Below are positions 41,001 to 41,282 of a stretch of DNA of 64,000 nt, piece after piece. The stretch is from a virus (taxonomy: Duplodnaviria; Caudoviricetes). Position 1 is the first letter of the stretch. Each line of letters opens with the position of its first letter. Where the stretch lies: the IMG/VR virus record IMGVR_UViG_2775507207_000001, positions 1 through 64,000 of that record, one strand, 5' to 3'. The notes under the pieces were generated by a model. The model searched no databases, was not told the DNA's origin, and saw only the letters and a program-made list of their open reading frames with translations. The position numbers were made by a program, and so were the translations under genes.

Positions 41001-41165
41001 ATGGGGCAAAAATGGGGCAAACCGTACGCCAATCTATGCCATTCAATGCCAATTATGCATTTATGCAACCCTGTGTGATCTAGCTGTATAGCCAGAAAAC
41101 ACGGGGCTGTCCTTCAAAATACCCCACATACCCCTACACAATCGGGGTGTGGGAGGACAGATCGG
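41001..41165. other. Right attachment junction: tandem arm-type repeats and core within mutS 5' codons
   Basis: ATGGGGCAAA at 41001 and 41012; similarity to MutS stops abruptly near 41141. Confidence 0.75.
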
Positions 41166-41181
41166 AGGTGTTTTTACTCAT
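41134..41181 (-). pseudogene. mutS: Orphaned 5' end of mutS ([13 protein letters not shown] then IV-stop)
   Basis: Matches the Pseudomonas MutS N-terminus up to the conserved HTPMMQQY; position next to prtR/tailocin fits the known mutS-cinA locus. Confidence 0.85.
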
Positions 41182-41282
41182 TGGGTAATAGGCAAATTCG
41201 TTGAAAGTGATGGGGCAAAGGGGGCGCGTGGTCCAGTGTCGATCAGTTTAGAAAGGCGCACGTCAAAACAAAGCAGGTCGAA

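Follow-up and report, generated by a model that had tools for sequence, protein, structure and literature searches.

Junction of a temperate prophage within the first codons of mutS, and the gene start supplied by its phage relatives

The DNA analysed here, referred to as the window, is a stretch of 64,000 nucleotides that makes up the first 64 kb of a 72,016-bp provirus delimited by computation (virus record IMGVR_UViG_2775507207_000001). A complete myovirus-like temperate prophage spans the window from beyond its left edge to position 41140 (<1 to 41140), where it meets host DNA carrying the orphaned native start of the mismatch-repair gene mutS. This start is a 15-codon open reading frame (ORF) on the minus strand. 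Positions 41181..41134 read ATGAGTAAAAACACCTCCGATCTGTCCTCCCACACCCCGATTGTGTAG, encoding 15 residues and a stop, and the first 39 nt counted from the ATG are identical to those of the intact mutS genes in the viral contigs L001, L003 and L008. The gene is broken between codons 13 and 14, inside HTP|MMQQ, and host DNA stops at 41141|41140. The core or putative crossover region (GATCTGTCCTCCCACACCCCGAT; 41141..41163, minus strand) covers codons 7–14 of mutS, and at the integrase-side joint with mutS it is expected to read ...CTGTCCTCCCACACCCCGAT. To the right of the junction follow, in order, the host DNA upstream of mutS, a DUF3077 gene, a SocA/Panacea gene, a PrtR-like repressor gene and a tailocin-type cluster.

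Public sequencing runs (X4, X12, X15 and X16) were compared with the junction as assembled contigs, which drop rare forms. Contigs of X4 bridge positions 40000–42300 with 0 differences, and a single 14,684-nt contig of X12 bridges the same interval with 7 differences; since contigs of other runs cross it, the junction is not an artefact of this assembly. The contigs of X15 and X16 agree with the window only on the host side, as far as 41141, where they pass into the reverse complement of GATGCAGCAGTACTGGCGCCTGAAAAACCA, those of the non-lysogen X16 matching 41141–41312 with 0 differences before they run into intact mutS. The site is unoccupied in the non-lysogens behind X15 and X16, whose mutS is intact, has an in-frame start and shares its upstream region with the window. 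The first-pass annotation had placed the prophage within the first codons of mutS, and the orphan start, the exact junction and the empty-site contigs diverging at 41141 bear this placement out.

At the other end of the window, the edge of the record falls inside an excisionase gene (xis; 1..164, minus strand, cut by the record edge), and relatives have the integrase gene (int) starting right there. Positions 164..3 on the minus strand encode the first 54 residues of a 65-aa excisionase, and 52 of the 54 are identical in the excisionase of the related locus L005. In both L005 and L035, a gene for a 415-aa integrase (type A) overlaps the end of xis, adjoining it at once. No MutS_I domain was found in a search of the entire record, which places the body of mutS outside it, and a tblastn comparison of the type-A integrase with the whole window returned no match at E<=1e-3. 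The integrase gene being outside the record, the L005 protein was used for domain tests, which identified an Arm-DNA-bind_2 domain (PF12167, E 3.6e-21) together with Phage_integrase (PF00589, E 7.2e-17).

L005 shows the same ...HTP|IV-stop junction with flanks that are 94–97% identical, and extends beyond the equivalent of the window's left edge into xis and the 415-aa integrase gene. Its element (9516–13941) is only ~4.4 kb long, comprising a different STAS-like/HATPase pair, a truncated C5 methyltransferase gene, xis and int, and is a deleted remnant of the same phage type. Both junctions are present in G002 (50,230 bp, CheckV 100%), where two direct copies of the core lie 43.7 kb apart. Junction 1 is like that of the window, with the native upstream region, 13 codons, TGTGTAGG... 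and the same arm. Junction 2 has, in order, xis, int (98% identical to that of L005), one PIN-like cargo gene, ...GCCCCATTTTTGCCCCA..., an ATG with 13 codons, the core and mutS, and reads ATG AAT AAA GCT ATT TCC GAC CTG TCC TCC CAC ACC CCG AT|G ATG CAG.... The phage-supplied start opens an 863-aa MutS in frame, and the number of phage-supplied codons, 13, equals the native number. Between the two G002 junctions the core is identical over 23 bp, uninterrupted and in frame, and 20 bp are common to the host side of the window and the phage-supplied side of G002; an identical core of 20–23 bp fits conservative recombination.

An integrase scan of species-representative genomes yielded 39 loci, with Pseudomonas, Stutzerimonas, Ectopseudomonas, Metapseudomonas and Azorhizophilus as host genera. 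In 37 of these loci mutS lies downstream of int and co-directional with it, at a distance of ~60 bp to ~4 kb; the two exceptions are L084, at a contig end, and L107, an actinobacterial match of 35% identity. The 37 mutS genes are preceded by GCCCCA-N4-5-GCCCCA and start with MNKAISD(L/F)S.HTPMMQQY or similar, the MNK... start being our reading at those loci that have a longer in-frame upstream extension. None of the 37 frames is broken: 35 are complete and two run off the locus. It had been proposed in the first-pass annotation that the separated mutS is either driven by a phage-supplied 5' end or silent until excision. The former arrangement, with a phage-borne ATG, is seen in every relative examined, and the latter in none of them.

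Several variants of this layout are informative about the phage-type start. Of the int gene, five loci (L100, L102, L103, L105 and L106) have kept only a 3' fragment; the adjacent mutS is full-length and opens with the phage-type start, so this start works as the sole start of the gene. In the minimal layout (L087, L089, L091, L098 and others) mutS begins ~60 bp past the int stop codon, with the consequence that its promoter must overlap the arm sites or the int gene, unless mutS is expressed by read-through from int. Two P. putida strains (L080 and L081) carry an integrase 79–80% identical to type A adjoining mutS, and among viral contigs with a type-A replacement start, a type-A integrase (80–98% identity) is located upstream in 11 of 12. 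A homologue of the window junction is also present in 29 of 38 of the scanned genomes. The two junctions are 42.7 kb apart in G006, 42.3 kb in G007, 45.3 kb in G013, 27 kb in G014 and 42.2 kb in G015; in the remnants G016 and G036 the distance is only ~5 kb.

The right end of the prophage (41002..41140, minus strand) forms the integrase-distal arm of the attachment site and is homologous in 14 lysogens. These are represented in the arm alignment by 14 promoter-side junctions, namely the window, L005, L067 and 11 of the 12 loci from the genome junction scan, L117 being excluded as a contig start. The aligned junctions share one layout: a variable host region, the core GAyCTGTCCTCCCACACnCCrAT, TGTG..., ~60 variable bases and a block of five repeats, just past which (after 41002) similarity stops entirely. 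In the window the five direct repeats occupy 41002..41051 (minus strand) at a spacing of 10–11 bp, as TGGCAT (41051–41046), TGGCAT (41041–41036), TGGCGT (41031–41026), GCCCCA (41018–41013) and GCCCCA (41007–41002), and are proposed integrase arm-type (and/or Xis) sites. The stretch TTTGCCCCATTTTTGCCCCA is identical in 13 of the 14 aligned junctions and differs by one base in L119; across 29 genomes, the repeat block is the best conserved part of the arm.

At the outer end of the arm, two tandem copies of ATGGGGCAAA span 41001–41021. This sequence occurs three times in the 64-kb window (41001, 41012 and 41210; 0.30 expected), a count reached by 0 of 100 shuffles. In the whole 72,016-bp record the tandem form GCCCC-N4-7-GCCCCA is found only twice, at 41002–41018 and 41211–41225, both on the mutS sense strand. 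An earlier description of such repeats as arm-like elements at the prophage end therefore has to be divided: it holds for the copies at 41001 and 41012, and fails for that at 41210, which is host DNA according to the X16 contigs. The free genome of Aeromonas phage pAEv1818, whose integrase is 42% identical, has the same layout of its phage attachment site (attP). One GCCCCA pair is located 27 nt before a short ORF, MNLKDNNTYISHIALMQH-stop, and a second pair ~110 nt past the ORF, the end of which shares 17 of 24 bases with Pseudomonas mutS. Tandem GCCCCA pairs are present on both attP arms, in lysogens and in the free phage attP. Because of this shared layout and the arm-binding domain of the integrase, putative arm-type (and/or Xis) sites are the best reading of the GCCCCA/TGGCAT repeats. 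All relatives of the type-A integrase in a collection of isolated phages (492 records) fell below 60% identity, the best at 42.1%. An extension of the mutS link to Gifsy-2, with an integrase 36% identical, was rejected as its annotated attP differs. Contigs of X4 break and overlap exactly at both GCCCCA regions (41003–41030 and 41198–41227), which suggests alternative paths in the assembly graph, for example another copy of the arm or other attachment-site forms.

A second class of element (type B) uses the same motif five codons further in, at ...MMQQY|GL.... Its promoter-side junctions were found in L002, L004, L006 and L007, the host flank of L002 being 97% identical to that of the window. 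Integrase-side junctions with the replacement start of this class (14 residues) are present in 12 loci (L039, L061 and 10 others), and in L061 the start stands behind a gene for a 332-aa tyrosine recombinase and a Zeta-toxin-family cargo gene beside mutS. No similarity was detectable between the L061 recombinase and the type-A integrase (E 1.2). Two unrelated integrase lineages thus appear, on sequence comparison, to have converged on the same few mutS codons within one host group. L002 and L039 come from the same source genome. Further mutS starts were noted in L018 and L065 (11 residues, with another upstream region), in L027 and L044 (an MTDLSSHTP start with a tailocin directly upstream) and in L047 (again another upstream region); these are possibly more element types or scars.

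We consider it highly probable that the window contains the promoter-side junction of a complete prophage, placed by a tyrosine integrase of the lambda type into HTP|MMQQ between mutS codons 13 and 14, and that this prophage is a Pseudomonas member of the class of elements described by Chu et al. (2017, mBio; PMC5296598). The available text of that paper places mobile elements in the mutS HTPMMQQ motif of Vibrio and of 'hundreds' of Beta- and Gammaproteobacteria, with V. splendidus 12B01, E. coli 536, P. putida F1 and B. multivorans CF2 as examples, and describes an orphaned host start, an integrase adjoining mutS and a start and promoter supplied by the element. Excision is given there as scarless in E. 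coli 536, P. putida F1 and B. multivorans CF2, with a 2-bp scar only in 12B01, and the authors proposed that excision toggles mutS between two control regions. The elements studied here resemble those of Chu et al., as far as described in that text, in the motif, the orphaned upstream start, the position of int beside mutS and, in our relatives, the new start and upstream region; in both sets sizes range from a few kb to a full prophage and the exact crossover varies, as between types A and B. In every feature accessible to testing, the window element fits the mutS-inserting class. The central phenomenon, a Pseudomonas example included, is already published. Beyond the available text of Chu et al. 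(PMC5296598) go the anatomy of the arms (five repeats and GCCCCA pairs on both arms), the two unrelated integrase lineages and the integrase relic presented below. A literature search returned no other paper treating this mutS site in depth, further matches being only to the phrase in the title of Chu et al.

According to the proposed mechanism, the integrase would insert the prophage at HTP|MMQQ, and the integrase-proximal arm would bring in an upstream region, an ATG and 13 codons, as seen in the relatives. Recombination through the 20–23 bp core would rebuild a full-length mutS directly downstream of int. The mutS of the lysogen would then stay functional and be read from phage-supplied sequences, while the displaced native start would yield only a 15-residue peptide. 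Excision is expected to be conservative and scarless, returning mutS to its native control region, and is probably SOS-inducible via the S24 repressor.

Some observations weigh against this explanation. The left junction of this particular prophage, with its replacement start, integrase and intact mutS, falls beyond the record edge; the RNA libraries X15 and X16 are from non-lysogens and cover the host side only; and neither upstream region, phage-supplied (0) or native, yielded a sigma-70-like site in a consensus scan, scans for promoters and terminators being uninformative for both. That the provirus was delimited computationally and has a left edge inside a gene would suit an assembly or provirus-calling artefact in which mutS is in fact uninterrupted. 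We regard the chance of this as negligible, given the bridging contigs of other runs, the recurrence of the junction in L005, G002 and 11 further aligned genomes, and a break at 41141 that does not depend on the strain and fits site-specific recombination. With the native promoter and start more than 41 kb away from the gene body, and the left junction of this record out of view, an on/off switch has to be considered, in which mutS is silent and the lysogen a mutator until excision, an active lysogeny comparable to that of SpyCI in mutL. The relatives speak against it: every one examined has a phage-borne ATG and an in-frame mutS (35 of 37 complete, and G002), the five loci with int fragments rely on the phage-type start alone, and long-term retention of intact mutS across five genera is hard to reconcile with a silenced gene. 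In active lysogeny the target is non-functional while the element is integrated, which is not what the relatives display, and we judge an on/off mutator switch at this locus very unlikely. Even less probable is a mutator state left by excision, as in V. splendidus 12B01, where an inactivating frameshift would remain in mutS. The available text of Chu et al. (PMC5296598) documents such a scar for one class member and scarless excision for P. putida F1, E. coli 536 and B. multivorans CF2; furthermore, the G002 junctions carry the 23-bp core uninterrupted and in frame, and non-lysogens with the window's upstream region have an intact in-frame start.

A quantitative effect is a different matter. 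If mutS is intact in both states, the phage control region could alter the level or timing of MutS and so shift the mutation rate, possibly in concert with the umuDC-like cargo; such a regulatory swap would add to insertion with a rebuilt gene and does not exclude it. The upstream regions differ outside the tandem motif, the minimal layout requires a promoter that overlaps the arm sites or int, or transcription that comes through from int, umuC-type cargo recurs in these elements (with umuD beside attP in pAEv1818), and the same idea was put forward in the available text of Chu et al. (PMC5296598). However, the phage-supplied and native upstream regions are homologous from about -60 to -1, with the same motif at the same spacing, which suggests from the alignment a mimicry of native control, and umuC cargo is not universal. 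We therefore hold the regulatory swap to be a tentative possibility, distinctly less probable than its absence. Since the position required for the mutS promoter coincides with that of the arm repeats, integrase binding might directly modulate mutS transcription. Control of both repair and error-prone synthesis by a single element is speculation.

Genes of the umuC/rulB type recur near the integrase-distal end of mutS-inserted prophages. Such cargo lies inside four of the five large elements in which both junctions were located (G006, G007, G014 and G015, but not G013), and within ~1 kb or less of the junction in G012 and G034. The search covered 28 of the 29 genomes with a junction homologue, and the counts stand without a base rate for other Pseudomonas prophages. 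In pAEv1818, umuD adjoins attP.

The host region upstream of the orphaned start carries traces of its own. The decayed tandem motif GCCCCCTTTGCCCCA at 41211..41225 (minus strand) is kept at the same distance from the ATG in native loci. A 194-bp insert (41222..41415) is absent from native loci of the L001 type, and one X4 contig joins 41221 to 41416, skipping it; summed over the runs, parts of the insert are covered to a high depth, as expected of a dispersed repeat. Beyond the insert, which in the window separates it from the decayed motif, lies a probable relic of the 3' coding end of a type-A integrase gene (41426..41479, minus strand; CEGSTSHVNLAPIAKNAG versus CWCLTARGNLAFIAKQMG), with a tblastn match of 50% over 18 aa and an E of 0.56 on its own. 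In tblastn all 23 of 23 native segments match integrase residues ~347/361–379 at one fixed collinear place, each match being individually weak (E 0.07–4). Compared as DNA, the native segments have a median score of 33.1 bits, against 19.0 bits for 660 dinucleotide shuffles; 32 of the 33 lie beyond the 99th percentile of the shuffles, though only three exceed their maximum. The native loci are interrelated, and these counts amount to a few independent observations at most. We see an even chance that the native mutS start and control region of the P. fluorescens group are the fossil of an older type-A insertion, phages having serially overwritten the 5' end and promoter of mutS, with the phage-derived start of one insertion displaced by the next. 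L111 (G015:C1:900373-903534) has a host-side orphan start of the M-DLSSHTP type and an upstream region unlike the usual native one; here a type-A phage may have entered a start that another element had replaced before, which would be serial insertion.

We also considered the tailocin as a leftover of an older type-A element, and rejected this idea. The cinA-proximal tailocin ends in G006 and G015 are without an orphan start, core or arm relic and gave only chance-level matches, although decay could hide a relic, and in G013 the integrase relic is found ~250 bp from cinA in the absence of any tailocin.

Among phage-like elements in repair genes, SpyCI in the 5' end of S. pyogenes mutL is similar in that its excision changes the state of a repair operon, and, according to the available text (PMC4129442), differs in that the strain is a mutator while SpyCI is integrated, whereas the relatives studied here rebuild a complete gene with a start that they bring themselves. 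Since they do so, loss of mutS function on integration is not expected. A substitute gene end is borne on the attP of lambdoid phage 21 and of e14, both of which integrate into E. coli icd. As in the mutS elements, the attachment site lies in a conserved gene that a near-copy of the displaced end keeps intact; unlike in these, it is the 3' end that is replaced, and not a 5' end with its start codon and control region.

Although a prophage lodged at the very beginning of mutS invites a reading as a mutator switch, this family rebuilds the gene. The comparison defines an attachment site (a 23-bp core, a distal arm of ~140 bp and five phased repeats) for an integrase family that uses one motif in at least five genera, and two unrelated recombinases would have converged on the same few codons. 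If the fossil interpretation is true, an entire clade owes the start and control region of its mutS to phages. With umuDC-type cargo recurring next to this site, an effect of lysogeny on mutation supply is a reasonable question.

The remaining content of the prophage is that of a temperate phage with a sizeable cargo. A C-5 cytosine DNA methyltransferase gene lies in the early-left region (161..1975, minus strand; PF00145, E 1.3e-20), followed, within the early region of the prophage, by a gene for a candidate defence protein resembling PDC-S20 and KAP-type NTPases (5502..6896, plus strand; PADLOC PDLC04959, E 1.5e-138, full length), which also has weaker matches to PifA and QatA. A cI/LexA-like S24 repressor is encoded at 6925..7650 (minus strand; Peptidase_S24, E 1.1e-23), from which we infer an SOS-inducible prophage. 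The replication and virion module (8941..34148, plus strand) contains genes for a primase-helicase, large terminase, portal, protease, major head protein, tail fibre, tail sheath, tape measure and tail protein, with PHROGs matches of E 1e-63 to 1e-245. The cargo comprises a D12-class N6-adenine DNA methyltransferase (35434..36228, plus strand; PF02086, E 1.4e-22), an SOS-response-associated peptidase (SRAP; 36420..37169, minus strand; PF02586, E 1.2e-49), a umuD/rulA-like gene (37249–37695, plus strand; Peptidase_S24, E 2.2e-27) and a umuC/rulB-like gene for a Y-family polymerase (37688–38965, plus strand; Pfam IMS, IMS_C and DUF4113). These genes and the C5 methyltransferase gene had been listed in the first-pass annotation, and all were recovered by Pfam. 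The last cargo before the attachment site is a pair encoding a STAS-like DUF4325 protein (39169–39483, minus strand; Pfam) and a HATPase_c protein (39583–40614, minus strand; Pfam). As both genes share the strand of the displaced native mutS promoter, transcription from the latter could run on into them. The pair is not assigned to a defence system, its PADLOC matches being weak and confined to the N-terminal part of DrmA (E 6e-6 and 4e-8).

Outside the prophage, the tailocin-type cluster extends over 44139..64000 (plus strand; Pfam) and is 82–97% identical to many mutS-adjacent loci, in agreement with an earlier suggestion that a tailocin locus adjoins mutS here. Its first gene encodes the PrtR-like repressor, with helix-turn-helix and S24 domains (44139–44909, plus strand; Pfam). 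In the P. fluorescens and P. putida groups, the mutS-cinA region is home to tailocin or 'prophage 01' clusters, and for P. putida BW11M1 Ghequire et al. reported a prophage that separates mutS from tailocin cargo genes, according to the available texts of these studies (PMC2647930, PMC3390384, PMC4684702). The cluster in the window occupies the same chromosomal neighbourhood as those tailocins; a tailocin differs from the element interrupting mutS here in being without an integrase. Between mutS and the tailocin repressor gene, the SocA/Panacea antitoxin-like gene (43453–43947, minus strand) and an overlapping downstream ORF (43089–43616) may be a toxin-antitoxin pair. Finally, a stretch of ~300 bp at ~75% identity is common to the prophage (12614–12912) and the adjoining tailocin (45500–45804), and many tailocin loci match both of these stretches.

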